NCBI GenBank assembly: GCA_964016885.1
Contig: OZ024746.1
Location: 60,388,001-60,452,000 of the forward strand
DNA: 64,000 bases
Direction of reading: 5' to 3'
Origin: Eledone cirrhosa
Taxonomy: Eukaryota
This document shows, in pieces, positions 2,686 through 39,040 of the stretch. Every line of letters begins with the position of its first letter. The stretch's first letter is position 1. Under the pieces are notes generated by a model. It saw only the letters and a program-made list of their open reading frames with translations, ran no database searches and was not told the origin of the DNA. Both the position numbers and the translations under genes were made by a program.

Positions 2686-4128
2686 GTAAATTTGGGCCTT
2701 TTCTATATTTTGATCTACTTTATGCTTGTTCATCACTACTGCTGTTATTTTCTCATCTTTTTTGTTCAGTTCAACATTCTGAGCTCAACTTTCACCACTT
2801 CTGCTTGTTTTACTTGGTCTTCCGCTTCCCTGGTTTCCTTCCACTTGGATCTCCTGTTACCGTCACCCACTAATCATCATCTATACACATTACATACCCA
2901 TACCATCTCAGTTTTCTTGCTTGCTCATCACATCGTGTTTGTCTTAAACCCAATTTTTTTCTCAACTCATCTGTGCTGCATGTTTAATTATATATTTCTA
3001 GCCTTCACATTCAGTGCCCATATCTCACTACCATGCAGCATTGTACTACATATGCTGACATCATATAGTCTACCCTTTGCTCAACACCACACTACATACA
3101 ATATACAATATTACATTATGTACACAAACATATAATCTCCCTTTTACTCAGAGAGAGAACCTCTTTGTTGTCAGTCTTTTCTCATTCTCTTTTACCCTGT
3201 TATTTCAGAGTTCCCAAGATCTTCTTTGGTACACGAACACACAAGCAAATCAAACAGATTGTTGCAGAACTAAAAGAAACCCACTACAAAGATGTGAGGT
3301 ATGTGTTCTTAGAGAAATGTGTAGTGTATGTATGTCTGTGGGGTGTTGGTAGCTGTTATTATTTAGCCCCACGTATACTCTGATTGAGCAGGCTTGTGAT
3401 CAAAGGTATTCCAGCAATGACCATCTCATTTTTTAATCCTTTTCTTAACATATTTCTAATGAAATACATTGTAAATGTGTTTCATTTAATTTTGAAAATG
3501 ATAAAAAAAAATTGAGGAATTTGTTAAAATAACTTTCTCATTGTCTAAAAAGTATTACTTGACTAAAGGCTCTTACATAAAATTATGATGGAAGGCTTTT
3601 ATTATAAGTATGAATACTTTAAAATATAGCAGTTAGGGGGTAGTTTCAGGGGTGGGGGAGTATCAACAAGGTTAAGGATGTGTAGGATTACATTATCTAA
3701 CATGTCACATTATTATATTAAATATCAAGGTGTGTGCAACTATATATTCATAAATGGGAGATGTTAGTAAAATAAACTAAGAAGAATTAATGATACTCAC
3801 TCCAAATTCCCTTACTGCAGTTTCATAGTGTAAGACATCTTAACCAGCCAAGACATCTAACATTGTGAGAAGTCGATAATCATCAGGGAGCTTCTCATGC
3901 AATAAGAGAAATATTTTTTCATGTGGCTGCAATATATGTGTGTTCCAAACAAAAAACATCATGTGCATGATGGCTAGGATGAAAAACACAACAGGTGCAC
4001 GGGTAACCAGTTAAAAGGAGTGCTAGAAATAGCTCACTAACTAGCCTGTCAGTTTAATTCAACCACAGGAGTATAAAATAATTATCAGAGAACCCATGCA
4101 AGTGTGGAAAGCAGACGTAAAAATGATG

Positions 4129-4159
<31 letters not shown>

Positions 4160-15094: not shown

Positions 15095-15131
<37 letters not shown>

Positions 15132-17391: not shown

Positions 17392-17434
<43 letters not shown>

Positions 17435-17842
17435 GTGTGTCAATCACTATAAAGAAGAGTTTAGAAAATCAGGTAAAGTACACACACACATATAAACTAG
17501 TTCAAACTGAGTGAGCCTGGTAACCATATCATCATCATCATCATCATCATTTTACGTCCGCTTTTCTCTGCTTGCAAGGGTGGGACGGGAACTGATTCTG
17601 GCTTGATTTCTACAGCTGGATGCCCTTCCTAACACCAACCTCATTTACAGTGAGTGCTGGGTGCTTTTTTGCCATGGCACCTCCATGACCACTTTGCAGT
17701 GGAATGATAGAGACCCCAGTCCTATCATCTCATTTCTACAGCTGAGTAAACGGGAGCAATGTGAAATAAAGTGTCTTGCTCAAGGAAACAATACATCACC
17801 CGGTCTGAGAATTGATACCTTGTCCATAAAGAGTGAACACAC

Positions 17843-17878
<36 letters not shown>

Positions 17879-20800
17879 TCATCATCATCATCATTTAACA
17901 TTCACATTCCCTGCTAACAGGGGTGGATCAGGTCATATATGCTTGTGGTCAGGTCTTCATTATCACAGCATAGCGCTAGCCCTCACGGCCCTTTGTCATC
18001 ACTGATGTGAGGTTTAATTTCTTAAGGTTAGTCTTCACTATCTTGTCCCAAGTCTTCCTGGCTCTGCCTCTTCCACAGGTCCCAGACACTGGGATTTCTC
18101 TGCATTTCTTTATACAGCTGCCATCTTCCATACGCATCACATGTTCAAAGCAATGTTATCTTCTCTCTTGCAGACTACATCTAATTCTTCTAATGCCGAG
18201 TTTATCTTTCTGTTTGCTTATGCTTCATCGTTCATGCACACTAACATTACACAGCCATTAAAGCATACTCACTTCATTTCTTTCCAGCCTTTGCAGATCC
18301 TCTGCAGTCAAGCCCGCTTATTTTTTAACCCTTTAGCGTTTAAACCGGCTGTATCCGGCCAGAACTTTCTCACCTCTTTCTGTTCAAACTGGCCACTCAT
18401 ATTGATATTAAGGTATTGTTCTCAAAATAAATAATATCAAAATCTCATAGATTCGATATTATGTGGGATAAAGGCTTTACCAGGAAAATAAAATAATATA
18501 TATAGAGTAATGTAAATGCTAAAGGGTTAAAGTATGGTATTTATATACCAGGTTGAAACTGGCTAAGAAGAAGATTATTTATATTATTGATCTCATTTTT
18601 GTCAGACTGCTAAGTTATGGCACACAAACGCAGACATGTGTACACACACACACACATACATATATACATGTGACAGGGGTTCTGAAGTGTCCATCTAGTA
18701 AACTCCATTCATAGGTCATTGATCAACCCCAGTTAGAATCTTGACTTGGTATCAGGAAAAATTTTATATTGAAATTTATCTATATGCTGGCATCAAAATT
18801 GCGACATGTGTATCTGATAAAATGTTCAACTGCTGTTTCTAGCACATTTTTCAGACATTCCTAATCATTCACTTATATACAAACTCCCTACCTCTCTTAA
18901 CTCATATACAGTCACACACACTCACACTCATGCACTCATAGTATTATTTACCCAGTTTTGATCATTCTAATTATCATTACACATGTTCTACTAGAGTGTA
19001 ACTGGAGGCTTCAGATGAAAATAATTCCTGTGTATATAGATGCGTATGAAGGATGACAGCTGCATAAAAAGGTGCAGAGCACTAGAAGTCGATGGAAACC
19101 GCGGAGTGGGGAGACCCAAGAAGACCTGGGATGAGGTGATAAAAGCCGACCTTACCCATTTACACCTTTCAAAGGCGATGACACACGACCGTGACCTCTG
19201 GCGTCACGCAGTAATACAGAAGACCCGACCCCCCCCCCCCCCCCCCCCCCACAGGTACAAGCCGAAGCTGAAGCATTTAGACAATATGCACCCACACCCT
19301 CCCACTGCAAAGTGGTCGTGGAGGTGCCACGGCAAAAATAACCCAGCCTACACTGTAAAGTGGACATGTAGGTGCCACGGAAAAAAAGCACCCAGCACTC
19401 ACTGTAAATGAGGTTGGTGTTAGGAAGGGCATCCAGCTGTAGAAATCAAGCCAGAATCAGTTCCCATATGAGCAAGACAAGGTCAGCCGACCGGACACTG
19501 CCCACAACAGGACAACCCGTCTAACCCATGCTAGCGTGGAAGAACGGACGTAAAACGGTGTTGATGATGATGATAGAGGGTTAACCCTTTAGCATTTAAA
19601 CCGGCCATGTCCGGCCAGGATTCTCACACCTCTTTCTGCTCAAACCGGCTGTAACTGGCCACTCATAGAAATGTTAACGTATTGCTCTCAAAACAAATAA
19701 TATCAAAATCCCATAGATTCAATATTATGTGAGGTAAAGCCTTTACCTTGAAAATATAATAGTAAATATAAAGTGATGCAAATGCTGAAGGGTTAAACAT
19801 GTGTATGAGACAGTGGCGGTCAGTAATGAGGGTTATAATGGAGATGATTATAAGTTATTTTTTCAATTTTTATTAAAAGGTCCCAGGGAAGAACTAACTT
19901 TGCACATCTGGTGTCTGAACCCTGGTGTGGTAAGTACTTTCACCATATACTTTCCCTATATATTTTTCCATAAGTCACCTAAATCTGTATATAAAGTCTG
20001 TTTGTGTGTGTATGAGTATATATATATATATATTTATTTATTATTAAGGCTAAAAAGTGAGTTTTGTTACTCTCGAGTTTCACCAGTTTATCACAGGGTC
20101 ATCAGACTCACTTTTTAGCCTTAATAATAATGTATATTAAAACTCTACTTCAGTATTGAGTACTCCTTTCTCTCAGCCATCAACCACATACGGATATATA
20201 TATATATATATATACTAAAAGGAACACCAGAATGGAACATTGTTCAGGGCGGCGATGGCAGATCAATAACTCACCGACAACATGTAGGGCCTCTAGGCAT
20301 GTACCTATATTGAAAGCCAAAAGGTACAACGAGAATCGCCCTTTTTCCATTCTTTACTGAGCTTGTCCAATCACCAAGACATAATGTGTGTGTGTAGACA
20401 GTAACTGAATGGAAGACCACTGTATATGTTGTATACATGTGTCTCTGTGTTTATATGTCATGTCCCTTTGACCTGTAACATAACAGTCCGACAAATAGAG
20501 GTTGATAAAATAAGTACTAAACTGAAGGGAAGACCCTTCAGTTGTGTCAAGGGCATAACAACCTCCATAAGGTTGGTGTTTTACATGATAAACATACCCA
20601 GTACACACTGTAAAGTGGTTGGTGATAGGAAGAGCATTTAACCATAGAAATCTTGCCAAACATAGGGTTGAGAGGACTCTCAGTTGTGTCAAAGGCATGA
20701 CAACTTCTCCTAAGCACTCGATGGAACATGAGACCATACATAAGCGAGACACAGATCCCTGGCTTACTTGGTAGATCAGTGACTCAGCTTCAGTAGTGAC

Positions 20801-23800
20801 TTGGTCAATATAGACCGTCCAGCCCTTGCTAGCAGGAAAAGTGGACATTAAAATGACAATGATGATGACGTGTGTGTATTTTAGTTTGCAGCCACATATC
20901 AATCCAGTATATGACTGCTACTATTTTATGAACCGTAAATTCTGAATGATCTCAGGCATCATATGTTCTTGGTTGCTTTTGGTTTTGTTGTCTTTTGTGT
21001 GTGTTTCTTTCTTATTGTTGTTTTTCTCTTCTAATCTAGAACCTTCTGTATTCCACAGACATTTAGTGACTTTTCCGTTACCCGGAGTGTAATCATCACC
21101 AGTGGTACTCTCTCACCTATGGTGTCGTTCCAGTCAGAGTTGGAGTTTCCCTTCTCTATTCGAATGGAAGCAAGACATGTTATTCCACCTTCTCAGGTAA
21201 ATTTCATTATAATAAGGTTTGCCTTGAAACAATGTGTGTGTCCCCCTTCAAAAGTCTCCCTTGACCATCACTCTCCTCCCATGTTAATTCTTGATCACTT
21301 TGGCATTGGTATAAAGTGGTCTACTCTTAAAGTCCCCCTTGACCATCACTTTGGTCTTATTCACTTGATCATGCCTGTCTTGGAACAAGTTGTACACATC
21401 GTTCAGTAAAAAGTATTTGCTACGCTCTGAAATGTGGCTAACAATTGAAAGATAAACTATACAGGATTAAGAGGACTTTTTGGTCACATCCAGGACATGA
21501 CAATCTCTCTAGTGTTGGTGTCATGATAAAATACCCCCAGTGGTTGGTGTTTAAGAAGGGTATCCAGTTTTAGAAACCATTCCAAAAGGGCCAAAATGGC
21601 TTTTCAGCCATGTCAAGGACATTACAATCTCTCTAGTGCTATTATATTTTCACGGTAAACACTTTATCTCATAATTATCTCACATAATATCAAATCTACA
21701 ATATTTTGAAATTATTTATTTTTAGAACAATACCTTAACATAAGTATGAGCAGCTAGTTATGGCTGGTTTGAACAGAAAGAGGTGAGAGAAATCTAGCTG
21801 GATATGGCCGGTTTAAATGCTAAAGGATTAAATGAGAAGGACATTTGGAAGGGCATCCAGCTGTAAGAATCATGCTATACTGGAATTATTGTATTACAGA
21901 ATATGAGTAGAATTTGAGACAGTAGGGTGTGGTTTGTTGAATATTTGGCTATTATCTCTAACAGTTTGAGTGGCCATCTAAAGCAACAATACCAAAACAT
22001 TGACCCCAGGCACATACAAAAATAAATAAGTAAATAAATATACCAGTAAACAGAATATAAAATAATTAGACAATAAGAACTAATTATATATAAATCAGAA
22101 AGCTGTATAGGGTAATTATATTTTATTGTATTATCATCAACATTTAAGATCTTTTTTCCCTTCTAGCAAGAGTTGGATAGGACTTGACAGACCAAGTCAG
22201 TACTCAGGCAAGACTATTGATCTCTAAGATGGGCTGAGAACCTGCATCTCACTTAACCATTTAGTATTTACACTATTCTATATTTACTATTGTATTTTCA
22301 CAGTAAATGCTTTATCTCACATAATATCGAAGCTATGAGATTTTGATGTTATTTATTTTGAGAACAATACCTTAACATCAGTATGGGTGGCCAGTTACAG
22401 CTAGTTTAAACAGAAAGAGGTGAAAGAATTCTGGCTGGATGCGGCTGGTTTAAATGCTAAAAGGTTAATATGGTCCCGCGCTCAATCAATTGCATTTTAT
22501 CATAACACCGGCACTAGGGAGGTTGTCATGTCTTTGATACAACTGAAGGGTCCTTCCAACTCTTTGCAAGCTTTCTATGGTTGGATGTATCACCAATCAC
22601 TTTACAGCATGTACTAGGTGTGTTTATCATGTAGATCACTAAGACTAGGGGAATTGTCGTGCCATTGACACAACTGAAAGGTCTTCTCAACCTTTTTCTG
22701 GCATATTAGTTGGTGTATTTTCATTTCTTATACAAATGTTAGGTTTTGACCCAAAAGTTTGGCGATCCCTGATCTAGAGGCTGGTTTGTTGTCAGAGGTC
22801 AACAATATTGAGGTAAAGGGAGGAAATCTATTTTTAGTTCCTACCTTCGTTATATATTGGTTTGTTTATATTTCAGGTTTTGGTGAGGGCCATTGGTTGT
22901 GGACCTTCTGGAAGATCACTTGTGGCCACCTTCAAACATACTGAAACCTTCACCTTCCAAGATGATCTTGGTGATATTGTTTGTGATGTCTGTATGGTAA
23001 GTTCTAAAGACTGGATTTTTTTTCAATTGTCTTTGTTGTGGTGGTTGGAAGCTCTGATTGTGATGGGGGGGGGGGGGGGGGGGGGTATTCGACCAGACAT
23101 TCCTCTTCTGCTAACTTCTCAACAATTTTTTCAAGTTCCACTTGGAAAGAAAGATGGGGTTGGGGGGTGGAAAGGCAAGTGTTACCCCCTTCCTCTGTTA
23201 AAAGGTGGGTGTATACAATGAGAATGGACCTACTCTAAGCATGCGTGTAGGCTAGAAGGAATATCGTTAAGAGGGGCATTTGTCTATGGTGCCTTTCGCA
23301 ATCAGAGTGATCTCAGATCTATGGAGCTCTTAAGTAGCTCTGAATGGTGCTCTTTCTAATGAGGAAATCTGTTAAATTTGCTGTTATTTGTCCCCTATTT
23401 TCTCTCTCTCTCTTTGCACACGTATATGTAAATCACCACTGTCCCTGTATAAAGTGTACCCTTGGTATTTGCAGTCCCGGTTATTCACAGAATTTTCCTT
23501 AGAACCTAACTAATAGTTGTTCATGGAAACCATCGCATATTCACAGAATCGTAAATATCTTCCGTGATGTTTTTATGGCTTTTTTCATAGCAATATATAT
23601 TTTTACGCTTTTTTTTATCGCTAAATTATTAATAACAATTTACCATATATACCAGCCTATATTTTTGACATTATATTTTGACGTTGATATGCATTTTTAT
23701 GGACCATGTCCAATATTCACAGGTGCTATAGCAACGTAACCCCCACAAATACTGGGGGACAACTGTATTATATTGTCCTCAATGTTTCCATCCCAAATTC

Positions 23801-26800
23801 CCAATGAAGATTAAATTTTGTTTTTGTTTTATTTTACCAGAGAACACCTAATGGTGTGTTGTGTTTCTTGTCTTCCTACACTATGCTAGATAAACTTTGC
23901 AAAAGATGGCAGGTATGTACTTCACAATTGACACTGACTCTTGTGGTCCTCTTTTAAAATTATTATTATTATTATTAAATTGTTGACCTTGTGCCTAAAT
24001 TAGAAATCATTATTATTATAAGGTTATAATTAGGGCGGTGGATTGGCAGGCATAGAGTTACAGCTCTTTGCGTTCTAAGTTCAAATCCCATTGAGGTTAG
24101 CTTTGCCTTTCATCCTTACGGGGTCATTGAAATAAAGTACCAGATTTAATCAACTTTCTCCTCCCCCAAAATTGCTGGCCTTGTGCCTAAATCTGAAACC
24201 ATATATTAATATAATAACCTTGTGTATTTGTCTGTCACACACTAGAGATGACTGAAGAAGGAAGGGGTGATTACGTCGACTGAGGAAGGAAGGGGTGATT
24301 ACGTCGACTGCGGAAGGAAGGGGTGATTACGTCGACTGAGGAAGGAAGGGGTGATTAAGTCAACTGACGAAGGAAGGGGTGTCTAATTCACACACACATT
24401 TATGTGATGACTGAGGATGGTAGGGGTGAGAAACTACAGAAGTCCAGCATTCTAAGATTCGTCACAGCTGTGTGTTTGTATGTTTGTATCACTTGTGTAA
24501 GTGAATACGAAGGAAACAAACAAACAAATATCTCTTTTTTATATTATGTATAGATATTACAATTAACTGTCATTTGTGATGGCACAGAGCCAGCTAGTTA
24601 TTATTATAAGGACGGTGGATTACCAGAATCATTAAGGCATCAGACGATATGCTTTGTGGTATTTGTTCCAGTTCTCTAAGTACTGTGTTCAAATTTTAAT
24701 GAGGTCAACTTTGCCTTTCATCCTTAGGGTTCATTAAAATAAAGTACCAGTCAAATACTGAGGTTGATTTAATTGACTTAGCCCTCCTCCTTCAAATTGC
24801 TGGCCTTGTGCCTAGATTAGAAACTATTATGGTTGTTGGTAAGTTAGAAAAAGAGGGATATTATCCTCCTTGACCCTTTGCAAACCCACCTAAATTAGAA
24901 TGGTAAGGTCAATATGTATATAGTGGGACTGGAGGTGTATCACTATGTGGCTTATATTGTTGTTTATATTTATATTTGCTAACCTTTTTCAAGGCCACTG
25001 GATTATGGGAGAAAATTTGGAAACGGAAAATAATTGTGATGGAACCCCGGACTGGGAAAAAAGAAGACTTTACAGCAGCATGGCAAAAATTCAGAACATA
25101 TGCTCAACGAGAAATAACAGGTGAATTGCTACTATGTCGCTGTTCTCTAGTTTTACATTCTCATAAATGTATATATACACACACACAGGGTTTCCCCCCC
25201 CAAAAAAATGTGTACACACTTTGATTAGAATGCTATTGAAGTGTTTATACATTTTTTGGGACACCCTGTATATATGTATCATCATGATCATCGATTAACG
25301 TCCATCTGCCACACTAGCATGGGTTAGACGGGTCCTATTTTAAGGCAAGTTGTGTCGAGTGACCGTGTCTCGCTCAAATAGGGGTGTTTCTGGCTGGTTT
25401 TCTACGGCCTGATGCCCTTCCTAACACCAACCACATTTACAGTGTAGGTTGGGTGCTTTTTACCGTGTCTTTTACACGTCTCCTTTATATATATATATAT
25501 ATATACATTACCATCCAGTTTCTCAGAAGTATAAAATGGACGATCAAGATATCCTATTGTTAAGGCCGACTCAGGTCAGAGAGCATTTAAAACTCAAAAT
25601 TATAAAAAAGTCAAGGATATGAAATTATTATTTATTCTTTCATATCTTTCACTTTTTTATAATTTTTAATTATATATATATATATATCATCATCATCATC
25701 ACCATCTTTGGAAAATGGACGTTAAACGAAGATGATGATGATGATGATGATGATATATATATATATAATTAAAAATTATAAAAAAGTGAAGGATATGAAA
25801 GAATAAATAATAATTTCATATCCTTGACTTTTTTATAATTTTGAGTTTTAAATGCTCTCTGACCTGAGGATATCTTGATCGTCCATTTTATACTTCTGAG
25901 AAACTGGATGGTAATGTACATTGAACTTCTCTCATCCTACCAAAGAAAATAGTAAAGTGCTACACTATAATCACATATTCTATATATATCACCATCATCA
26001 TTACTGTTTAACATCTATTTCTATGCTTGTGATGGGCTGTCACAATATGAGGCTTGGTTTTCTATAGTTGGATGCCCTTCCTAACACCAATCACCTTACA
26101 GGGCAGATTGGGTACTTTTTGTCATGTCGCCAGCATGACCACTGTATAGGGGGGATTGATTGCTTTTTGTCACACCAACAGTACAACGTCTTTATAGGGT
26201 GAACTAGGTGCTTTTGTTGTCAAACCACCAGTACGTCTTTATAGGGTGAACAAGGTGCTTTTGTTGTGACACTACACAACCACTTTACAGGGTGGACAAG
26301 GTGCTATTGTTGTAACACTAGCACAACCACCTTAGGGTGGACTACGTGCTTTTGTTTTAGCGTGAGCACTACTACAGAATGGTACAGGATGCGATGGGTG
26401 CCTTTGTCACGGCACTAGTATGTCTTAAAAGGGTGGAATAGGTGCTTCTGTTGTGGCACCAGCACTGTGGGAGATCATGCACATGTCATGGGGATGTGTG
26501 TATATATTTATATATATAAATGCCGGTGCCCCCTCATAACCTCAGCCTATCGCCTGGAACATGTAATAGAGTAATATCATCATCATCAACATCATGGTTG
26601 AGCATTTATTTTCCATGCTTGCATGGATTAAACAGGCTACCATATTCTGAGACTAGGCAGTTCAGATGTCTGTGTGTCATTCATATATTCCATTCTAGGC
26701 CTTCATGGCTGGATGCCCTTCCTAATGCCAACCATTTCATGACGTGGTGTGAGAGAGGGAAGTGGGCTGCAATAGTGGTGGTGGGGGCATCCCACTTACT

Positions 26801-27640
26801 AAGTTGGTATGGTTGACTATGGGAATTGGGGACCTGATAGGGAAGAAGGAGTTAGTAGCATGTGGTTATGCCCTGCTGAAGGCACATCTGTCTCTATGTT
26901 GGCCCAAATTGGGTAAGAATGGAGGAATCAGAGATGTGGTTGGGAGGAGAAGACTGGAGTTGTGTTTCGTTCTGCTTGGGTAATAGGAGGTGGCAAACAC
27001 CACCTCAATTACCTTACAACCAACTTAACCATCACTGGCATTGTCATCTCAAGAACCATTACCATAGTCATCACTACCTCCTCAACCATCACCACCACTT
27101 CAACCACCATCACCATAACCATCATTACCTCCACCACCTCAATCATCACCACTGCCACCTCAAGAACCATGACCATAACCATCACCACCTCAATCACAAC
27201 CCCCACCATCTTAACCACCGCCTCCACCACCACAATTCACTCATCTATTTTCATCACCATCATCAACAACAATAACAGCTACAACTTATGTCCCTTCCTT
27301 TTCCTTTCAGATTCTCTGGAGAATGAAGAAGAAATCACACAAGATGGCGCTCTGTTCTTGGCAGTATGTCGAGGGAAGATCAGTGAAGGGATAGATTTTG
27401 CAGACAACAGTGCTAGGGCTGTCATAACGGTATTGTTTTTTTTCTCTCTCTCTCTTGGTATTTTACGTTCTTTAACTCTAATCTTCATAATACCAGGACA
27501 ATTTGTTAAGCCTTCATTACGTTTATTGATTGGTGACGCGTGTTTCACTATTGATCAGCTCAGGGTTCAATCTGTATTGATCTGGCCTGACTCTGGAATC
27601 AAAAGCTTGTCAGACCTCTGTTGTAGTAATGACAGACTCC

Positions 27641-27684
<44 letters not shown>

Positions 27685-30600
27685 TCCATTCGTTCCCCTG
27701 ATTCAGAGATTCAGATAAAGGCTTAACCCTATTGATACCAACCTAACCAAAACTGGCTCAGGTTCAATAAAACAAAACAATTCATATTAAAGAGTTCCTA
27801 TTTAAATTTGTTCCCTCTACCATAATTTTATATAAAAACATTTCATTAAGTTATGTTACAAATATCATCATCATCAATCATCCATTTTTCTTGCTAGCAT
27901 GGGTTGGACATACAATTTTGATAATGAAATAATTTTAATAGATCCCTCTAGTTCTTCATTAATTAATTGAAGTACAGTGTATGTCAATACAAATATGCTA
28001 ATGAAAAGGTTAACCCTTTAGCATTTAAACTGGCCGTATCTGGCCAGAATTCTTTCACCTCTTCCTGTTCAAACTGGCTGTAACTAGCTGCTCATACTAA
28101 TTTTAAGGAATTGTTCTCAAAATAAATAATATCAAAATCTCATAAATTCAATATTATGTGAGATAATTATGTAAGATAAAGCCTTTACCGTGTAAATATA
28201 ATAGTAAATATAGAATAATGTAAATGTTAAGCCATAAATTACTGCACTGGTACTCAAATCATTTCTTTATTTTAAATTGTTTAATCACTGGTCAGCAATA
28301 TAGTATTTTCAGTCAAGACCAAAGGAGATTTCATCTAATACATATATATATATATCTATTTCATCATCATTACTAATTAACATCTATTTCCCACCCTTGC
28401 ATAGGTTAGATGGGTTGTTACATTCTAAGACTAGACTGGTCAGGTGATCATATCTTGCTTATATATTCTGCTTTTGGCTTGATTTCTACAATGCCAACCA
28501 CTTTATAATATGTGCTGTAAGCATTTTATTATGACTCCACTTTACGAGGTGGACTGGGTGCTTTTTGTCATGACACCAACACTACTACCTTACAGGGTGG
28601 ACTGGATGCTTTTTATTGTGGCACCAGTACTACCACTTTACAGAGTGGGCTGGGTGCATTATATATATATATACTAGCTGGCCCCATGCTGTGAAAAATG
28701 ATGGCTAATTGTTATATCTATACATAATATAAAAAAAGAGATGTTTGTTTGTTGGTTGGTTCCTTCGCGCTCACAGACACAAGTGATACAAACACACAGC
28801 TATGACGAATCTTAGAACGCTAGACTTCAATAGTTTCTCGCCCTCTTCCTTCCTCAGTCATCTCTAGTGTGTGACGGGCAAATACACAAGTAGGTATTTT
28901 ATATATTCTGTTCTTTTCTTCACCAGGTTGGAATCCCCTACCCTAATGTGAAGGACATTCAGGTAAGTTGAAACCTTCAGCATTCATTAAACTTGACTAT
29001 CATATCTTGTGTGTGTGTGTGTCTCTCTGAATGTGTGTGTATGTGTACATATATATTGATGTTACAGTTACAATATCCTAAGATGTGGAGAGAGTTCAAT
29101 CTTGTGAGAAGAGTTATAATGAGTGTTATTACTGTCCAGAGTTTACACCATCATCATCATCATTTAATGTTCATTTCCCATGCTATCATGAGTAGGACAG
29201 GCTATCCCTTTGTGAAAGATCAGGTCGGAGGACTGTTTCTGACTTGGTCTCAACGGCTGGGCACTTTGTGTCAAAGGCATGACAACCTCTCCTGAGCACT
29301 TGATGGAACATGAGACCATACATAAGTGAGACACAGATCCCTGGCTTACTTGGGAGATCAGTAGTGACTTGGTCGATATAGATTCATCCAACCCTTGCTG
29401 GACATTAAAACAACAATGATGATGATGATGATGTGTGTTTAGTTTAGTAGTTTAGGGCACTTCCTAACGTCAACCACATTTACAGCGTGGGCTGGGTGCT
29501 TTTTGTCATGACACAACACAACCACTTTACAGTGTGGACTGGGCACTTATGTCATGACACCTACACAGGTTTTAAAGTTGGAAAGATATGCACAGATTTT
29601 CATCAGGTTCAATTTTCATAAATATAGCTGGGCCTGCATGAAAAGACTCAGAAGTGGTGTACAAGAGAGAAGACTGCGTTGGTATGGACATATAAGGCTC
29701 ATGGATGATAATTGCTGGGTGAAGAAGTGTCAGGAAATCCCAGTGGACAGAAGCTACAGTAGAGGTAGACTTGGGCAGAGTTGGTGAGAGCTGATCTCAA
29801 ATCACTGAAACTCACAAAGGAGATGACAAGGGGATGTGACAAGTTGAGAGATGGTGTGCTGAAATCGACATAAAAATGATGATGATGATATAGGTAAGAC
29901 ATAACTCCCTCAAGTCTCTCATTTCTCTCTATATATTTATATTCAGGTATCATTAAAGAAAGAATATAATGAATTACACAAAAGAACTAAGAACCTACTT
30001 CCAGGAAATGAGTGGTTGGAGATCCAGGCTTTCCGTGCCCTTAACCAGGCCCTTGGCAGATGTATTCGGCATAAGTAAGATTCTTTTTTTTTACAACTTT
30101 TCTTTAGGATTTTCAAATCATTTGTTTTAAAATATTCATGTTTAAATCTTTATTCATAATGATTTCTTATTTAGGCACAAGACCAGCAATTTGTTGTGAG
30201 GGGAGGAAATTAATTATATCAAACCCAGTATTTTACTGGTGCTTTATTTTATTGACCCTAAAAGGATGAAAAATTAAATTAAGCTTGGTGGGATTTGCAC
30301 TCAGAACGCAGAAGATTATATATATATATATATAAATGCTGCAAAGCATTCTGTCTGATGCTCTTACAATTAAGCCAATCAGCTACCCTTTAAAATACCA
30401 ATTTAATAATAAGCAAGGTATATTACTAATTCCCTCCAAATTCTTTAATATTTTCAAAATTTATTTGAAAAATGTTAACGGATTTGGCAGTGTCTTTCAT
30501 TAGAAATATAATGATAACAGGGTTTAAATGGTTGTTGATTGAATAGAGATAATATAGGCTAGAGAAGGCTCTTTTGTCATATTATGACTTTTTCACTCTT

Positions 30601-31580
30601 TCTGCAGAAATGACTGGGGAGCACTTCTATTGGTCGATTCTCGATTCCTACAAGGTAACAGATACCACAAAGGTGAGTGTTTTGTTGTTTTAGTAGTTGT
30701 GTTTTCTAGTTGTTATTATATTATTCTAGCTGCTATTGGAAATTTATAAAACTAAGAAATGCAATATGCAGTTACACACATAAAGACATATATATATGGC
30801 TGACTGAATACGCACATTCTTTTTTTCCTTGTTTTTTCCCAGTTCCTTCCTCTTATCACTCTTTACTTTCTATGTATCTTCTATTTCTAAGTCTATCTTC
30901 TGATGAAGGACTAGTGTCCAAAACGTTAAGACTCTCATCCTACTATTTCAAACATTCATCATCATCATCATCATCATCATCATCGTTTAACGTCCATCTT
31001 CCACACTTGCATGGGTTTGGACGGGAATTGTCCCACTTGAGGCAAGATTGGTTGTCTTGCTCGTATAGGACTGTCTGGCGGGTTTTCTACGGCTGGATGT
31101 CCTTCCTAACACCAACCACGTTTACAGTGTGAACTGGGAGATTTTTACCGTGTTACCTACACGGCCACATTACAGCGTGGACTGTGTTTTTTGTCGTGAC
31201 ACCTACACGACCTCATTTGTTTCGGACTGGATGTTGTGGTACCAACATAACTTTACATTGAAAGGGGTGGTGTGGATGGAGTGGGGGTAGTTAGACGGGG
31301 GGGGGGGGGGGGGGTTAGAGGTGCCTACTGACTAGGTTTCGCTTTGTACTTAGGCATGGAGGGTCTTCTGTATTACTGTGTAGCGCCAAAGATCTCGGTC
31401 CAGTGACATTGTCTTGGAGAGGTGTAAGTGTGTGAGGTCGGAATTTATCAAGTCGTCCCAGCTTTTTCTGGGTCTGCCTACTCCGTGGCTACCGTCTATT
31501 TTTATCGCCCTAAACTAATATGTTTCTTCCATGTACTGTGTTATTTATTTTGTTATTTCTGTTTACCTTTTACATACATA

Positions 31581-31612
<32 letters not shown>

Positions 31613-34600
31613 AGGAAGAGAAATTGAAAATGCAACCAGAGTCAATCTTTTAAGAATATTTATTTATTTACTTTACCAGTTTCACAGTTCTTATGATTTT
31701 CAAAAGTAAAATTGAGATGGAGGGTTTGTGTTTCTGTTGTGGTTTGTCTCGCATATATATATATGCACACATGAGTATTTTGGAATATATATGTATGTGT
31801 ATGTTTTCTATTTACTTTTGAAGGTTTATCAAAATGGATCCGTGACATGTTGAAGTCCCAGCCCAATTACAATGTAGCTATGCAGTCCCTGACAACATTT
31901 ATGAAAGATAAAACAAAGAACAGCTTACTACAGTAAGTAATCTTCCTATTTGCAGATGATGTCTTAGTGGGTTACCTTTTCTCCCATCAAATGGTATTGA
32001 GCATGGAAAAGTGTTGGAGTTGAAGGTTAACTATTGAGTCATTAACCTTTGTTCATACCAAACTTCCTAAAACTGACCTTGATTCTATGATACAAAGCTG
32101 TTTGTTTTAAAGTATTTATATTTATCTAAAAACCTTCCATCATAATTTTATATAAGAACCTGTTCTAAAATAATGTTCCAAACACCAGCTTAACCCTTTA
32201 GCATTTAAACTGGCTGTATCTGGCCAGAATTCTCTCACCTCTTTCTGTTCAAACTGGTTATAACGTGCCACTCATATAGATGTTAAGGCATTGTTCTCAA
32301 AATAAATATCAAAATCTCATAGATTCGATACTGATACTAACTTTTTTTAGTTCTTTATTCTAAACCAGATACACATCCTCAGTTAAACCCCTCCATGTTT
32401 TCACACACCCATAACTCTCATTTACTACCTACCTCCTTTCTTTGTGAATTATTTCTATATTTGGTTTAATTTCCACTCTTTTATTGGTTTTGTTTTAGGG
32501 AGAAATCTTCAAACAGTATTGAAAATAGCCACCCAGAGCCAGATAATTTACACATGGAACCCATCAAAGCCAGCACACCTATCACAAAGCATAGTTGTGG
32601 TGTTCATCCTGAATGTGAGCCTGATGTAAAGAACCTCACACCAGAAAGTGACTCGGGAAACCACAATGATAAACTTGTCCACAATATAGCGGAACTTTCC
32701 AGTGTTCTTGCTGTAGGTACTCCCAGTAGTAAGTCAGATGCAGACTTTGTTGAAACAGTACCGCCACACTCTACAGAACATCATAACTCTTTGACAGATC
32801 AACTAGAGGAGCTGGTACCACAGGGGACCGTACGATTAAATGAGGATGAGTCACAATCTCATTGTAAAACATCCAAAGATCAAAGACTAGCGACAATGAC
32901 ATCATCAACCGATTCCAAGCCGCAGCTTATGATAACAGGAGATTGCCACCAATCAAAGAACCTTCTGTTACCAACAGACAATAGTGAGGTCACCAATGAA
33001 TATCCTACTGTGTCACCAAAACGTCATTGTATTAAAGTTCACAATTCAGAAACTAAGAAGAACATAAAATTTAATAATACAGAGACCAATCTCAAATGTT
33101 CACAAAGTTCCTCTGTGAATGGCAGTCCTGTTTTATTCCATGACTTGAACGATTCTACTGACGATGCTGAGCTCTTATCAATGGTTGAAAGCGAGGCTGA
33201 AAAGAGCATCACGAAAGAATTTAACTGGTCTGATGAACTGTCAGAAACTTTGAGTTCCTTGCCATATCAAAGTGCTACCGAATGTGATTTGGATGAAACA
33301 ATAAAGTTATCAGACATGAAGAAACGTGCAATATTGAGGGCGCCACAGAAAGACAGTTCTTCTGAGTCCTCAACAGAAATTTTCACTGAAGACCCAGATC
33401 TGATGACCTTCATTGCAGACAGCAGCAAGATTGATTCTTTCTCCTCTACAGTGTCTTCTTCTTCACATAAGGGGCCAAAAGGTGACAGTATTAAAAAGGA
33501 AGACATGGGCAGTTCCACTGTGTTGAACCATAAACTGACAAGATGTCCCCTTTTCAAAGCAGCCTCCAAACATCCACATGGGACCTCCACACCAGCTAGT
33601 GCTGGTAAGAATGATCTAGATGTTCATAAACTGTCATCTGTTGAAAGAGATCCTTTTGCAGAGCTTCTGGCATTTGATTCCCAAGAATTGAAACTGAAAC
33701 GTTCAGTAGGACGGAAACGGCGACCCTCTGGTAACTACATGAGGTACAACAAAAAAACTAGAGGTGTTACGTATGATTCAACAGAAGAGGTTAGTTTTAT
33801 TGTTATTGTTGTTTGTGTCATTGTTGGTGATGCTGCTGTTGTTAGTGTTGTATCATTGTTGTTGTTGCCTTTATTAGTGTTGTGAATGGTGCTGGTGTTT
33901 ATAGAAAAATGGAATATGTGTGTGTTTGTGTGTGTTTGAACAGTGCATGTGTGTGTTTGTGTGTGTTTATGTATGCAAGGAGGAATGTGTGTTTATGTCA
34001 GAGAGAAACATGAAGAGAGAGATACAATGAGAGAGAGAGAGAAAGTGTGTGTGTGTGTCATTTTTAAATATGACTATATGTGTGACTTAAACAATAGAAT
34101 ATACATTATGAATGTTTCTGTATGAGTGTGTGTGTGTATCACTGTTAAATAGGACTATATGTGTGACTTAAACAATAGAATATACATTATGAATGTTTCT
34201 GTATGAGTGTGTGTGTGTATCACTGTTAAATAGGACTATATGTGTGACTTAAACAATGGAATATACATTATGAATGTTTCTGTATGAGTGTGTGTGTGTA
34301 TCACTGTTAAATAGGACTATATGTGTGACTTAAACAATGGAATATACATTATGAATGTTTCTGTATGAGTGTGTGTGTATCACTGTTAAATAGGACTATA
34401 TGTGTGACTTAAACAATAGAATATACATTATGAATGTTTCTGTATGAGTGTGTGTGTGTATCACTGTTAAATAGGACTATATGTGTGACTTAAACAATAG
34501 AATATACATTATGAATGTTTCTGTATGAGTGTGTGTGTATCACTGTTAAATAGGACTATATGTGTGACTTAAACAATAGAATATACATTATGAATGTTTC

Positions 34601-37600
34601 TGTATGAGTGTGTGTGTGTATCACTGTTAAATAGGACTATATGTGTGACTTAAACAATAGAATATACATTATGAATGTTTCTGTATAAGTGTGTGTGTGT
34701 ATCACTGTTAAATAGGACTATATGTGTGACTTAAACAATAGAATATACATTATGAATGTTTCTGTATGAGTGTGTGTGTGTATCACTGTTAAATAGGACT
34801 ATATGTGTGACTTAAACAATAGAATATACATTATGAATGTTTCTGTATGAGTGTGTGTGTGTATCACTGTTAAATAGGACTATATGTGTGACTTAAACAA
34901 TGGAATATACATTATGAATGTTTCTGTATGAGTGTGTGTGTATCACTGTTAAATAGGACTATATGTGTGACTTAAACAATAGAATATACATTATAATAAT
35001 AATAATGAATGAATGAAATTATTGTGTACAGTGCTCAGGTGCACTACAACTCATCAAAGGTGCATGTATAGTACATAGAATAATGTACAAATGTCAGAAA
35101 AATGAACAGTGTACGAGTCATGATATAATAACAATAACAATAATGAAATATTGTGTACAGTGCCCAGGTGCACCACAACTCATCAAAAAAGTGCATGTAC
35201 AGTACATAGGGCAATGCACAAACATCAGTAAAATGAACAGTGCACGAGTCATGATACACACATGTGTGCATGTGCATGGAAGGGGTACATCAGGTGTAGT
35301 TTTGGCGTATTTCGGGAAGCATGAGTGTCTTAAAGGATGCAGTGTCTCGGCAGCTAACAATTGACGCAGGCAGTTTGTTCCATGCTTCAGCAACTCTGAG
35401 CGTGAAAAAATGTCTACGAAAGTCATGGGAGCTGTGCTGTTTTCTGATCTTGTAGGCATGTCCACGTGTGTTAGACACATGGAGATCAAAGAGGCGCTCA
35501 GGGTTGCAATTGGCGAGATGGTTAAAAACTTTGTGGGTATTCACCAAGTCCATTGCCAGACGTCGGAGCTTCAATGAATCCATGCCCAATGAATGTTTCT
35601 GTATGAGTGTTTGTGTGTACCACTGTTAAATATGACTATATGTGTGACTTAAACAATGGAATATACATTATGAATGTTTCTGTATGAGTGTGTGTGTACC
35701 ACTGTTAAATATGACTATATGTGTGACTTAAACAATAGAATATACATTATGAATGTTTCTGTATGAGTGTGTGTGTGTATCACTGTTAAATAGGACTATA
35801 TGTGTGACTTAAACAATAGAATATACATTATGAATGTTTCTGTATGTGTGTGTATCACTGTTAAATAGGACTATATATGTGACTTAAACAATGGAATATA
35901 CATTATGAATGTTTCTGTATGAGTGTGTGTGTTTAAACTGCTATTTACTTTTTCTCTCTCTCACCACATCAACAGAAAGAAGAATTTGTCATTCTCTGCA
36001 AGACTTGTCATCGAAATCTGTTCTCTGTGCATAGCAGTAAGTGTCTCCATTCCACTATATTTTCCTCTCCTCTCTTTCATAATATTATGAAGGCATGTGG
36101 CTTAGTGTTTAGAATGTTGGAGTCACAGTCATGAGATTGTGAGTTCAATTGACAGAGTGGGCAACGTGTTGTGTCTTCAAGCAAGACACTTTATTTTACA
36201 TTGCTCCAGTACACTCAGCTGTAGAAATGAGTTACGGCATCACTGGTGCCAAGCTGTATCGGCCTTTGCCTTTTCCTTGGGCTACATCAGTGGCATGAAG
36301 AAGGGAGACCGGTATGTATTGGTGACTGCTGCTCTTTCACAAAACCACCTTGCATTGGTTGTGCCTCAAAGGGTAATTTTCTTGGTGCAAACCTATGGTT
36401 GTTCATGATCGAAGGGGTTCTTTATCCTTTTTACCCTATATATATAATATTAAACAATGACAGAATAAGAGAAACAAAGTGAGGTATTAATTAATCCATT
36501 TATGATTGTTTCACAGAGGAAAGTATCAATGTGCAATCTAACTGATGGTAGTTATGTAAGTCCACACCATCAGCCTCAAAATAACACATCTATACTGATC
36601 AACATTTTGCTTTAACATTTACTATATTTGTTCTAGTTTAACCTTTTAGCCTTTAAACCAGCTGTATCCAGCTAGAATTCTCTCACCTCTTTCTGTTCAA
36701 ATTGGTCATAGCTGGCTGCTCATACTTATGTTAAGATGTTGTTCTCAAAATAGATAATATTAAAATCTTGTAGATTTGATATTGTGTGAAATAATTGTGA
36801 GGTAAAGTGTTTACCATGAAAATACAATAGTATATATAGAGTAATATAAATGCTAAAAGGTTAAACTAGTCTGATCTGGACTGGTGTATTTGTTCCAATT
36901 TAGTCTGGCCTAGACTGGGTTTATTTAGATTAGTCACACTGTTTTATAATATAACTAGTCGTGTATCATCATCATCTTCATTTTTGCCTTCTTTTCTTTT
37001 TCGTCATCTTTATCCAGATATAGAAAAACGAAACAGAAAACCGCCACTGCTGAAAGATATTTTTACTGACAGTCAATGTGTGTTTCTGTATCTCGCGGCC
37101 AACACAAGTGACCAGCTTGACAGTGTGTCCACTGTGAAATATGTTATTGGCAACGGTCAGTTCACTTTGAAAATATTTCACTTTTATTTTCTGTTGCACC
37201 ACCAGACCACACAACACCACAGAATGCTACATCACCACCACATTACAACACTACACCATCACAGTACACCACACCACACCACTCTAACACACCATACCAC
37301 CACAATATACTACACCATCACAGTACACCCCACACCATACCACCACAGTATACTACACTACAACATCACATTACACCACACAACACCATACCATAGTACA
37401 CTATATCACCACCACTGTACACCACTACACCATCACAGTACACACCACCACACCATACCATACATTCACTGTATACTATACTACACCATCACAATGTACC
37501 ATTATTAATGTTTTTGTTTGTATTATTAGGTGCTGGATTAAACACTTGTTGGATACCAAAATATGGCTGTTGTGTGGAATATTTACAATGTATTTGTGGT

Positions 37601-38865
37601 CAAGGGAGTAAACATACTTTGGTTGGTGTCAGGGTGTTGTTAGGGTCAACTGATTACCCTACTGGTCAGGTAATACAGCAAATATTGCCATCTTTCTCTA
37701 TATCTATCTCTTGTCATTTCTCCCACTCACTCATATATTCATTCTTTCTCTCATGTTGTCTTCTCGTATTTTTCTCACATATTTTTCTCTTGCATTCACC
37801 CAGTACACTCTGTAAAGTGGTAGTACTAGTGCCACTATAAAATGCATTCAACTATTTTTGCCAAAAATTTGGTTCTTACAAGCAAGATATGGTTCTCTGA
37901 CTCTCTTCTCCCCACCATCTAAAACTGTGACAACCTTTCCAACCCATGTCAGCATGGGAAACAGACATAAAATGATAGCAATGACTGTGATGATAACACT
38001 GATAAGGATGGTGATATCATATAAATTAATATAGATGATGAGCATGTCCAGCTAACTTCAGTCTCCTCTGTATTACTTTCGAGCTGACTTTTGGGAGGCT
38101 CCCATACAGCTCTAAGTTCTTCATTCTCAGTGAGTACTAATTAATGTTCAGAGCCATCCTCAATATCCTCATGTAGCACCCATCCACCATCTCAGTGAGT
38201 TTCTTGGTCAGAGTCCAAGTCTCAGGCCCATACAGTAGCACAGACTCTACTGTAGCAACAAAGAGGCAGATATTCAGGTCTTTACAACATTCAAGTTGAC
38301 ACTGCACTCAGTGGTCATATGAGAACCCCTACACGGACACACAGGAAGAGGGAGACCAAGGATGACATGTTGATGCCTAAGAACAGACACTGGTCTCTGG
38401 GAGACATGGGACGTAGCAACGATGATGAAAGACAGAGACTGTTGTAGGATATGTTTTCATTTAATATCAACTACACTCTGTAGATTGCAAGAACATATGT
38501 AAGATGTGGTCTTTGACCAGTCTGTAGTTTCAATTAAGTACTGACTTGATCTGTGACAAACCTTGGTTAGCAAAGAAAACAATTAAAAGAGGATGGTGGT
38601 GATGGTGGTGGTAATGGATGATGTTTCTTAACTTTGTATAATATAACAATTGTTTGGAATATTTTAAATACTGTCCATACCACTTACTCATATTTACCCA
38701 CTCCTTTTGTCATCTGTTATATCTATCCTTACCCCACACTTGCCCTTACTCTCCTTGTCTATTACTCATCCTCACTGTCACTGTCTCATTTCTCTCTCAC
38801 TCTTATATTTCCCACAGCTATGGTTGTTAGATGAGGCTGTGAAAATCAACAGTGTCCATGACTGA
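2480..38865 (+). CDS. BRIP1: FANCJ/BRIP1 Fe-S cluster 5'-3' DNA helicase, spliced gene span (26 exons in window; N-terminus/motif I upstream of window)
   Basis: Spliced translation contains [16 protein letters not shown], four Fe-S Cys, [79 protein letters not shown] and GLSKWIR. All junctions are GT-AG and phase-consistent. Confidence 0.95.
3209..3298 (+). CDS. BRIP1: FANCJ exon, motif Ia ([22 protein letters not shown])
   Basis: tttcag acceptor, gtatgt donor, diagnostic motif. Confidence 0.95.
4630..4723 (+). CDS. BRIP1: FANCJ exon, Fe-S domain Cys1/Cys2 ([16 protein letters not shown]...EACKDKIE)
   Basis: tttcag/gtgggt, phases fit. Confidence 0.92.
4828..5498. repeat. 55-bp minisatellite, 12 copies, spanning the FANCJ intron/exon boundary
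   Basis: CAG ends at 4863, 4918, 4973 ... 5468 with exact 55-nt spacing. Confidence 0.97.
5469..5591 (+). CDS. BRIP1: FANCJ exon, Fe-S Cys3 ([10 protein letters not shown]...[15 protein letters not shown])
   Basis: tacag/gtaagt; WDIEDLV motif; exon start is the last unit of a 55-bp tandem array. Confidence 0.92.
6471..7133 (+). mobile_element. 5'-truncated RTE LINE (RT C-terminus plus 3' UTR, (GAT)n tail) nested in a TTAA MITE (6266-7159)
   Basis: GRPRKTW...RDLWR motif; the MITE resumes (gagtaatgtaaatgctaaagagttaa) after the tail. Confidence 0.88.
7280..7381 (+). CDS. BRIP1: FANCJ exon, Fe-S Cys4 (VRACPYF...[17 protein letters not shown])
   Basis: tacag/gtaagt; CPYNYLLD. Confidence 0.95.
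7669..7885 (+). mobile_element. tRNA-derived SINE with conserved central box gcctttcatccttacggggtcgataaaataaagtaccag (other copies ~1770, 7415, 13710, 24032, 24610, 42325(-), 50517)
   Basis: A-box tggcagaatcgg, B-box-like g(a/g)ttcaaatc, many dispersed copies. Confidence 0.8.
8000..8830 (-). mobile_element. Degraded RTE-type LINE RT fragment
   Basis: [11 protein letters not shown] and LTYGHDSW-like RT C-terminal motifs with frameshifts. Confidence 0.7.
8845..10423 (-). mobile_element. Young 5'-truncated RTE LINE: RT (LLYADD) with PHD-like Zn finger insertion, 3' UTR and (GAT)n tail; 148-bp internal tandem duplication
   Basis: ORFs 9866-10246 and 9163-9753; YADD at 10268-10279; [27 protein letters not shown]. 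Confidence 0.95.
10907..11042 (+). CDS. BRIP1: FANCJ exon, motif II ([16 protein letters not shown])
   Basis: tacag/gtatgt. Confidence 0.95.
11348..11568. repeat. 24-bp minisatellite (ctgaaacattgtactgtagctttc) x ~9
   Basis: Direct inspection. Confidence 0.95.
11951..11997 (+). CDS. BRIP1: FANCJ small exon ([16 protein letters not shown])
   Basis: tag/gtgagt; bridges phase 1 to phase 0 as required. Confidence 0.78.
12654..12859. mobile_element. piggyBac-type MITE (~205-225 bp): TTAA target duplication, TIR CCCTTTAGCATTTA
   Basis: ttaa-ccctttagcattta...taaatgctaaaggg-ttaa; at least 11 copies in the window. Confidence 0.85.
13127..13276 (+). CDS. BRIP1: FANCJ exon, Arch domain (VYRLRSF...[11 protein letters not shown]...ISGLS)
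   Basis: cag/gtaagt; IWSG as in FANCJ. Confidence 0.9.
14306..14463 (+). CDS. BRIP1: FANCJ exon (NSLKSIREE...[16 protein letters not shown])
   Basis: aag/gtaaat; AEDFR equals FANCJ ADDYK. Confidence 0.85.
15204..15249 (+). CDS. BRIP1: FANCJ small exon ([15 protein letters not shown])
   Basis: tttag/gtaaga; phases fit. Confidence 0.8.
16879..16906 (+). CDS. BRIP1: FANCJ 28-nt microexon (RSRSKSDNP)
   Basis: tttcag/gtgagt; needed to convert phase 0 to phase 1. Confidence 0.75.
18325..18530. mobile_element. piggyBac-type TTAA MITE copy
   Basis: Same TIRs and TTAA. Confidence 0.85.
19038..19573 (+). mobile_element. 5'-truncated RTE LINE 3' end
   Basis: [10 protein letters not shown]...GRPKKTW; 3' UTR; (GAT)n tail. 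Confidence 0.88.
19581..19796. mobile_element. piggyBac-type TTAA MITE copy
   Basis: Same TIRs and TTAA. Confidence 0.85.
19880..19929 (+). CDS. BRIP1: FANCJ exon ([17 protein letters not shown])
   Basis: aag/gtaagt; WCLNP motif. Confidence 0.92.
21059..21196 (+). CDS. BRIP1: FANCJ exon, motif III ([19 protein letters not shown])
   Basis: cacag/gtaaat. Confidence 0.95.
22877..22996 (+). CDS. BRIP1: FANCJ exon ([12 protein letters not shown]...[10 protein letters not shown])
   Basis: tttcag/gtaagt. Confidence 0.95.
23841..23912 (+). CDS. BRIP1: FANCJ exon, motif IV ([22 protein letters not shown])
   Basis: accag/gtatgt. Confidence 0.95.
24219..24556 (-). mobile_element. Helitron-like non-autonomous element with internal 28-bp tandem repeat; second copy 28715-28891 (+)
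   Basis: 5' end a|TCTATACATAATATAAA, (GTTT)n-like tract, 3' end resembling CTAG; two copies. Confidence 0.45.
24994..25120 (+). CDS. BRIP1: FANCJ exon (ATGLWEKIW...MEPRTG...)
   Basis: caag/gtgaat. Confidence 0.92.
25185..25270. mobile_element. Tc1/mariner-like micro-MITE (hairpin)
   Basis: cagggt..cccaaaaaatgt.tacacactt / aagtgtttatacattttttgggacaccctg-ta. Confidence 0.6.
25504..25918. repeat. Long near-perfect inverted repeat (~190-205-bp arms)
   Basis: Right arm is the reverse complement of the left apart from a 16-nt indel and few mismatches. Confidence 0.95.
27311..27429 (+). CDS. BRIP1: FANCJ exon, motif V ([29 protein letters not shown])
   Basis: tttcag/gtattg. Confidence 0.95.
28927..28962 (+). 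CDS. BRIP1: FANCJ small exon ([12 protein letters not shown])
   Basis: accag/gtaagt. Confidence 0.93.
29947..30074 (+). CDS. BRIP1: FANCJ exon, motif VI ([21 protein letters not shown])
   Basis: ttcag/gtaaga. Confidence 0.96.
30608..30672 (+). CDS. BRIP1: FANCJ exon ([13 protein letters not shown])
   Basis: tgcag/gtgagt. Confidence 0.95.
30955..31512 (-). mobile_element. 5'-truncated RTE LINE 3' end
   Basis: Close reverse complement of 6620-7133. Confidence 0.88.
31824..31932 (+). CDS. BRIP1: FANCJ exon ([10 protein letters not shown]...)
   Basis: gaag/gtaagt. Confidence 0.93.
32499..33789 (+). CDS. BRIP1: FANCJ large exon, Ser/Asp/Glu-rich disordered C-terminal region with basic NLS-like [12 protein letters not shown]
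   Basis: 1291-nt open exon, tttag/gttagt, phase 2 entry matches the previous exon. Confidence 0.88.
34065..35932. repeat. ~77-81-bp minisatellite with variable (GT)n, ~16 copies, interrupted by a CR1 insertion
   Basis: Direct inspection. Confidence 0.93.
34993..35590 (-). mobile_element. 5'-truncated CR1/L2-clade LINE 3' end
   Basis: SLKLRRL...NTRGHAYKI...[14 protein letters not shown]; (ATTC)/(ATT) tail. Confidence 0.88.
35976..36036 (+). CDS. BRIP1: FANCJ C-terminal domain exon ([20 protein letters not shown])
   Basis: aacag/gtaagt; phases 0 to 1. Confidence 0.8.
36638..36864. mobile_element. piggyBac-type TTAA MITE copy
   Basis: Same TIRs and TTAA. Confidence 0.85.
37018..37155 (+). 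CDS. BRIP1: FANCJ C-terminal domain exon ([12 protein letters not shown]...KYVIGN)
   Basis: tccag/gtcagt; phases 1 to 1. Confidence 0.78.
37530..37669 (+). CDS. BRIP1: FANCJ C-terminal domain exon ([24 protein letters not shown]...LVGVRVL...GQ)
   Basis: ttag/gtaata; phases 1 to 0. Confidence 0.8.
38041..38450. mobile_element. RTE-like LINE fragment with 5' inversion
   Basis: Minus-strand [13 protein letters not shown]...LAGHA followed by plus-strand LTLHSV...GRGRP. Confidence 0.75.
38818..38865 (+). CDS. BRIP1: FANCJ last coding exon ([15 protein letters not shown])
   Basis: Long pyrimidine tract plus cacag; TGA followed by AATAAA 170 nt downstream. Confidence 0.8.
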   Translation, partial: LWLLDEAVKINSVHD

Positions 38866-39034: not shown

Positions 39035-39040
39035 AATAAA
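39035..39040 (+). promoter_or_regulatory. Polyadenylation signal of FANCJ
   Basis: AATAAA followed by T-rich tract; a second AATAAA lies near 39108. Confidence 0.65.

Follow-up and report, generated by a model that had tools for sequence, protein, structure and literature searches.

Does the FANCJ helicase of the octopus Eledone cirrhosa end in a disordered tail, or does it go on into a further folded domain, and what might such a domain do? The FANCJ gene is implicated in Fanconi anaemia and in breast/ovarian cancer, and the tail of the protein is regarded as disordered throughout. In the 64,000-nucleotide stretch analysed here (GCA_964016885.1, contig OZ024746.1, positions 60,388,001 to 60,452,000 of the forward strand; hereafter the window), the original prediction placed beyond that tail four exons for an ancient zinc-binding domain of the Yippee/Mis18 type. 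Our results indicate that a real, conserved domain on FANCJ is close to certain.

The + strand of the window contains most of a FANCJ gene. In tblastn with the NCBI FANCJ proteins of Octopus sinensis (P0001) and Argonauta hians (P0002), the exons come out in order from about 2.5 to 38.9 kb (Table 1). The helicase exon series corresponds to residues ~160 to ~875 of both proteins, and the 5'-most exons were not located within the window. Pfam finds DEAD_2 and Helicase_C_2 in P0001 and P0002 alike. The best 120 of 2236 matches to the helicase region are FANCJ-named, called generically 'DNA helicase' or without a name, and one of these 120 scored 1421 bits against human FANCJ, 180 against CHL1 and 174 against XPD. 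By such sequence comparison, the window helicase is of the FANCJ/BRIP1 type, its XPD-family core being closer to FANCJ than to XPD, DDX11 or RTEL1. Elsewhere in the window, a FANCJ intron holds a fragmented LINE-type reverse transcriptase with a PHD-like finger (9166-10426, - strand). The downstream gene is TTI1, with exons at 49778-50074 and 58037-58327 (+) that match Pfam TPR_TTI1_N above cut-off, and a tandem repeat at 53959-57130 yields long Cys/His-rich open frames on both strands that are probably not genes.

Table 1. Features of the FANCJ gene in the window (positions count from the first letter of the window).
Feature	Position	Strand	Basis or remark
FANCJ helicase exons (DEAD_2, Fe-S/Arch region, Helicase_C_2)	2495..31933 (approximate bounds)	+	tblastn
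Large exon, 430 codons, 1291 nt	32499..33789	+	AG/GT bounded, in frame
SPVLF, conserved [ST]PxL[FY] motif	33124..33138	+	in disordered large exon
Read-through of donor: 31 hydrophobic codons, then stop	33790..33885	+	translation
Domain exon 1: first CxxC (Cys codons 35997 and 36006)	35976..36036	+	
Domain exon 2: helix and variable insert	37018..37155	+	74%/64% identity to P0001/P0002
Domain exon 3: LNxxW strand (Trp codon 37550), CxC (37589, 37595), GVRV strand, GQ	37530..37669	+	
Domain exon 4: last 15 residues and TGA stop	38818..38865	+	
First AATAAA past large exon, candidate poly(A) signal	39035..39040, 170 nt after stop	+	

The exon series was borne out as predicted, with the quoted motifs present. 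All four domain exons have an AG acceptor and the first three a GT donor; starting at the large exon's GT donor (33789/33790), the phases are 0/1/1/0, and together the exons give 128 codons and the TGA. Both octopod NCBI proteins terminate with the product of these exons, in the same order; the protein end had to be corrected, being slightly longer than the ...AVKI* first written. The domain shares 108/128 residues (84%) with Octopus sinensis P0001 and 96/128 (75%) with Argonauta P0002, against 266/430 (62%) and 210/430 (49%) for the large disordered exon, which points to purifying selection on the domain. The fourth exon (16 residues) is 100% and 88% identical to P0001 and P0002, respectively, and the third has a single match in the genome of Eledone cirrhosa itself. 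Taken together, the splice signals and the orthologous gene models make it likely that the four exons are spliced onto FANCJ. Four sequencing runs yielded unspliced genomic contigs and no junction at these exons, which weighs neither for nor against splicing. A FANCJ ending at the 33885 stop was considered and rejected: the read-through codons are a simple repeat (tandem array 33801-33883) with no counterpart in P0001 or P0002, and that stop is probably not a used ending. A candidate small exon near 36517 contains an in-frame stop and has no equivalent in P0001/P0002; it was rejected on inspection by eye. The intron ahead of the domain exons is filled by an 81-bp minisatellite (34044-34994, 11.8 copies; 35589-35932, 4.4 copies). 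Between the donor and the final stop there is no AATAAA where 2.5 are expected, a difference that is not significant, as 9.7% of simulations also gave none.

An alignment of 40 rows, in the numbering of a fixed 25-row profile (A1), describes the domain. Cysteines C7, C10, C86 and C88 are invariant (40/40), followed by N70 (32/40), an aromatic residue at 73 (97%), L84, G/A97, Q111 (33/40) and W113 (32/40), giving the signature LNxxW...LxCxxC...G[AV]x[VI]...GQxWL. The predicted CxxC...C-x-C layout stands as regards the four cysteines, whereas the C-x-C proves to be an octopod variant (window 37589-37597, + strand), since the second pair is CxxC in 38/40 rows; two sponge-group rows have the first pair shortened to CxC instead. 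No other Cys is invariant, no His or Arg is conserved, no Lys or Arg is invariant (the best K/R column reaches 53% of the 40 rows) and the net charge ranges from -6 to +7. The rows P0040, P0090, P0127, P0129 and P0131 and those of teleosts carry an insert of 25-30 residues with an extra CxC, which a starfish row shares, and vertebrate rows have further Cys, ahead of the first pair and close to the end; these extra vertebrate Cys could possibly form a second metal site.

No Pfam or NCBIfam family passes its cut-off for the P0001/P0002 tails, the window exons or the A1 members. PF03226 (Yippee-Mis18) gives 0 matches for these tails and exons and 3 sub-threshold ones among the 25 A1 members (best E 0.08), and PF11648 (RIG-I-like CTD) matches none of the 25. 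The best PDB match of the A1 profile is MsrB1 (E 0.015, positions 7-39 only); a single-sequence search of the PDB returned one match, taken as chance. Atlas feature scores are 0.87 for PF24046, 0.83 for Yippee-Mis18 and 0.81 for FAM72, all below 0.9 and a lead only. Given that no Pfam family reaches its cut-off, the domain is a family without a name, of known fold; on the predicted models it is a new beta-tent family on the known helicase FANCJ. In the full-text literature searched, FANCJ is not linked to the yippee or beta-tent fold, and InterPro, TED or the AlphaFold DB may list the domain nameless. The excerpts naming both BRIP1 and yippee come from unrelated tumour expression studies, a survey of the domains of genome maintenance, human and other, leaves FANCJ/BRIP1 unmentioned in its main text (PMC11377751), and the available portion of a study on Arabidopsis FANCJ shows no such domain (PMC6550410).

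The AlphaFold2 model of the octopus version of the domain is mostly beta (pLDDT 80.4, pTM 0.75), with the Cys pairs at the hairpins between strands 3-7/13-17 and 79-87/93-102. In VIA-align it was closest to Mis18 (5hj0; Z 8.8, 3.5 A, 97 residues), YPEL5 (Z 7.8, 3.2 A, 98 residues), Mis18a (7.8, 3.5 A, 89 residues) and bacterial cereblon (7.2, 3.4 A, 98 residues; a further cereblon 6.9). Lower rows held DUF427, MsrB1, TCTP, the CTDs of RIG-I, LGP2 and MDA5, and MSS4, with unrelated rows at a Z of about 3 or less. The Foldseek comparison proposed with the original prediction agreed in order, beta-tent proteins leading and Mis18a best (E 4.4e-3). A bird version, modelled with disordered ends at a mean pLDDT of 68.3, gave Mis18 (Z 7.9, 3.9 A, 97 residues), YPEL5 (7.8) and cereblon (7.7) in VIA-align and weak rows in Foldseek (best E 0.15). 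Each of the two wide searches returned 20 rows at a Z of at least 5, mostly named beta-tent members as defined in PMC4287342, including DRH CTDs; the beta-tent consists of two beta-meanders set at an angle, with a hairpin inserted. The highest Z scores are modest, with several beta-tent families level with one another, and no match to either model reached a Foldseek E of 0.001; the case for the fold is made by the whole family topping both lists together with the Cys positions, the Atlas scores and the weak MsrB1 match. On these models the domain very probably folds as a beta-tent, with Mis18/Yippee nearest as predicted, and its four Cys sit where zinc is held in that fold, so that it would bind zinc.

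The domain is widespread on FANCJ orthologues. Within the best 120 of 2236 FANCJ-like proteins, a profile built up iteratively from both octopod tails settled on 39, two of them N-terminal fragments only, and the fixed A1 profile (E<0.001) detects the domain in 37. It lies at the FANCJ C-terminus of 16 of the 19 named molluscs, the A1 misses being Nucella and Candidula (short models) and Tegillarca, and it is also present in FANCJ of the tunicate Styela, a chimaera, one shark and many teleost long forms. A1 found it in none of eight frog and lizard FANCJ models, nor in the lungfish model or the sole oomycete row among the 120. HMMER over 1.84 billion protein representatives gave 67 matches; names were looked up for 29 of the 61 new ids, none of which is named as mammal, plant or fungus. 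These matches add FANCJ of Lineus (nemertean), Acanthaster (starfish), Saccostrea, Mya and Solea, as well as helicase-less gene models from two corals, the sponge Ephydatia, sturgeon, coelacanth, sardine, eel, whitefish and the bird Morphnus. The latter are most likely split FANCJ ends, judging by the pairing of Ephydatia with P0091 and the SPxLF motif of the coral and sponge tails (both below), and as many vertebrate and cnidarian copies stand in such models, fusion is there inferred. Pfam on 22 of the HMMER matches finds helicase domains alone or nothing above cut-off; a word-index search with the domain, of limited sensitivity, returned the two octopod proteins only. In the domain tree, chondrichthyans, coelacanth with bird, teleosts, octopods and corals come out as starred groups, and the full-length FANCJ P0091 pairs with Ephydatia at 100/100; P0160, P0172, P0175 and P0179 are long branches to which the tree gives no placement. 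Where supported, the domain tree matches the species tree, consistent with vertical descent. The predicted antiquity thus holds within animals, from sponge to bird by profile matches, and P0172 and P0179 show a W...C..C...V[GA] layout similar to a signature that the original prediction ascribed to plant FANCJ C-termini. Of the proposed loss in mammals, the human part stands: A1 gives no match to the human FANCJ chain at E<=10, a result that covers human only.

In the case of vertebrates, the absence of the domain has a recurrent form. Of 126 FANCJ rows, 48 stop 7-36 residues past an RLSRS-like motif, without the domain, and the long forms carry on from that very point. The short models of Callorhinchus and its long model P0090 part right after RLSRSRNKG, and Solea X3 equals X1 over 1248 residues, followed by one residue and the end. 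In Podarcis raffonei isoform X1 (P0118), splicing after NKG leads into the KVQR exon, which in fishes precedes the domain, and the model then stops; either the domain is in the course of decay here, or the model is incomplete. The lizard tail NKG-V aligns with human K1242-G1243-M1244, and human FANCJ ends at K1249, seven residues past the point where long vertebrate forms go on toward the domain. K1249, the last human residue, is not conserved in chicken, and in a published primer G1243-M1244 are coded GGC ATG (PMC3390368); GC in place of the donor GT fits a decayed donor, without proving it. The protein models suggest that the short forms are splice-donor read-through and that human FANCJ is one of them, and some short or long vertebrate models may be prediction artefacts. 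Since read-through of one donor would give the short form, the domain would be optional in jawed vertebrates. We tentatively propose, at a little under an even chance, that ancestral FANCJ was a helicase with a beta-tent reader, that jawed vertebrates turn the domain on or off at one splice donor after RLSRSRNKG, and that human FANCJ fixed the truncation, in which case its final seven residues, with K1249, a regulatory acetyl-site, among them, are read-through of the old donor.

Between helicase and domain lie ~400 disordered residues in most rows; human residues 891-1249 are likewise disordered in cryo-EM (PMC13490418). The product of the large exon is likely a disordered, low-complexity linker with a basic patch at its end, and of 18 rows examined, 15 mollusc-like ones and one other have a conserved basic stretch, KR..G[VI]x[FY], ahead of the domain. 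The linker motif [ST]PxL[FY] occurs in 17 of 28 tails (invertebrate and unassigned rows) against 2.6% of shuffles; the SPVLF type is kept from sponge to molluscs, and the domain-bearing coral and sponge tails contain SPxLF too. SPVLF is likely homologous to the human T1133-PELY phospho-site, which presumably binds the TOPBP1 BRCTs. This conservation and likeness suggest that the BRCT-docking phospho-site is older than vertebrates.

If the domain exons were a separate small gene, FANCJ would end at the 33885 stop and the fusion would be an annotation artefact. The helicase-less models of coelacanth, sturgeon, sardine, eel, bird, corals and sponge would suit this, as would the many rows that stop past RLSRS; yet many independent annotations give full-length FANCJ models with the domain fused, as do the full-length records P0004 and P0091, and P0175 has a FANCJ-like helicase end ~70 residues ahead of it (best PDB match human FANCJ, E 0.012, weak). 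In the window itself, exon 35976 has no in-frame ATG-led start ahead of it, and the alternative ending at 33885 is the simple repeat described above. We consider a separate gene highly improbable. A shared fold does not in itself show what the fused domain does. It could bind nucleic acid (a fork junction, DNA end, G-quadruplex or RNA-DNA hybrid) and gate the helicase as the RIG-I-like CTD does: the architecture is that of RIG-I-like helicases, an SF2 helicase followed by a C-terminal beta-tent, the CTDs of RIG-I, LGP2, MDA5 and DRH match at Z 5.1-6.4, the conserved basic stretch lies just upstream, and Mis18/Yippee has been called a predicted DNA-binding module (PMC11377751). On the other hand, the domain is without invariant Lys/Arg and near-neutral with variable charge, in the octopus model Mis18, YPEL5 and cereblon all score above the RIG-I-type CTDs, the disordered linker separates domain from helicase in most rows, and human FANCJ, which lacks this domain, uses its Fe-S domain to recognise G4 (PMC13490418). 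On this balance nucleic-acid binding appears unlikely.

A main role in oligomerising FANCJ, as the MeDiY domain has in Mis18, is distinctly doubtful. Three of four fold searches place Mis18 first among the structures, Mis18 Yippee domains dimerise via beta-sheet I (PMC4818781) and dimerisation has been predicted for FAM72A (PMC11377751); but the cereblon, RIG-I and MsrB domains lack innate oligomerisation (PMC4818781), so this property is not fold-wide, and the last strand (119-120), where the Mis18 interface residue Y114 falls by approximate range matching, has no conserved aromatic. Two homodimer prediction runs on the domain scored 0.00, with the alignment unused and the fold uncertain, and so weigh neither for nor against dimers. 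We favour docking of a protein partner, at about an even chance: the conserved residues other than Cys are polar or aromatic rather than basic, the charge is variable, and the nearest structures are protein-binding modules, such as YPEL5 on WDR26 (from structure titles) and Mis18, with its pocket and dimer (PMC4818781). Beta-tent domains have a cradle-shaped groove for diverse ligands (PMC4287342). The whole of the proposal, that the four exons splice onto FANCJ and encode a four-Cys zinc beta-tent docking a partner via the flexible linker, is in our judgement evenly poised. The predicted zinc-held beta-tent would dock its partner from the end of the linker through a groove marked by N70, W73, Q111 and W113, and this ligand might help bring the helicase to stalled forks or crosslinks, beside the linker phospho-motif; in jawed vertebrates the arrangement would be optional, human FANCJ having the short form. 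Against this proposal, the domain is dispensable in humans and missing from all eight frog and lizard models.

Were the proposed ancestral reader real, the ligand of the domain would reveal a route of FANCJ recruitment replaced in humans. The behaviour of FANCJ differs between human, chicken and worm cells (PMC3390368), and a derived state of the human protein may bear on these differences. Fish and bird models would have an unannotated long FANCJ form, absent from short-form cDNAs. The beta-tent fold, which includes cereblon and YPEL5, would gain a new family, and the small size of the domain makes it suited to direct structural and pull-down studies.

Compared with known systems, the domain is closest to the MeDiY domain of Mis18 (5hj0/7sfz, PF03226): the predicted fold agrees over the whole domain, with two Cys pairs, about 100-130 residues and a nuclear chromatin context, although identity is only 11-25% and Pfam gives no match at cut-off. 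The Mis18 domain precedes an oligomerising helix, whereas that of FANCJ is fused to a helicase. Yippee/YPEL5 (8qbn_Y) and FAM72 (PF14976), alike in fold and Atlas scores, are small stand-alone proteins. The Yippee aromatic pair W82/Y84 after Gly (PMC4287342) corresponds, if the residues are equivalent, to Ala/Val in FANCJ; positions 98 and 100 are Ala/Val/Ile, with an aromatic in 3% and 0% of the 40 rows. Cereblon CULT (4v2y, 7bqu; Z 6.5-7.7) has in common with the FANCJ domain one conserved Trp, on the hairpin that leads to the second Cys pair; it has a LON domain, which FANCJ lacks, and a cage of W79/W85/W99/Y101 (PMC4287342), against one conserved aromatic in that region of the FANCJ domain. 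A cage of the cereblon/Yippee type appears not to be conserved, going by motif spacing. MsrB has a catalytic Cys/Sec with an Arg/His active site, conserved residues that the FANCJ domain is without. The CTDs of RIG-I, LGP2, MDA5 and DRH (PF11648) likewise end an SF2 helicase with a beta-tent, and in RIG-I-like receptors the RNA-end pocket of the CTD is basic; FANCJ differs in being an XPD-like Fe-S DNA helicase with a long disordered tether and no conserved basic surface residues, and the two fusions are likely independent. Human FANCJ/BRIP1 (PDB 9ej9) has the orthologous helicase core and a disordered tail with the TPELY motif, yet stops at K1249 without the domain; if most animals have a folded reader domain on FANCJ, the human protein would be the derived case.
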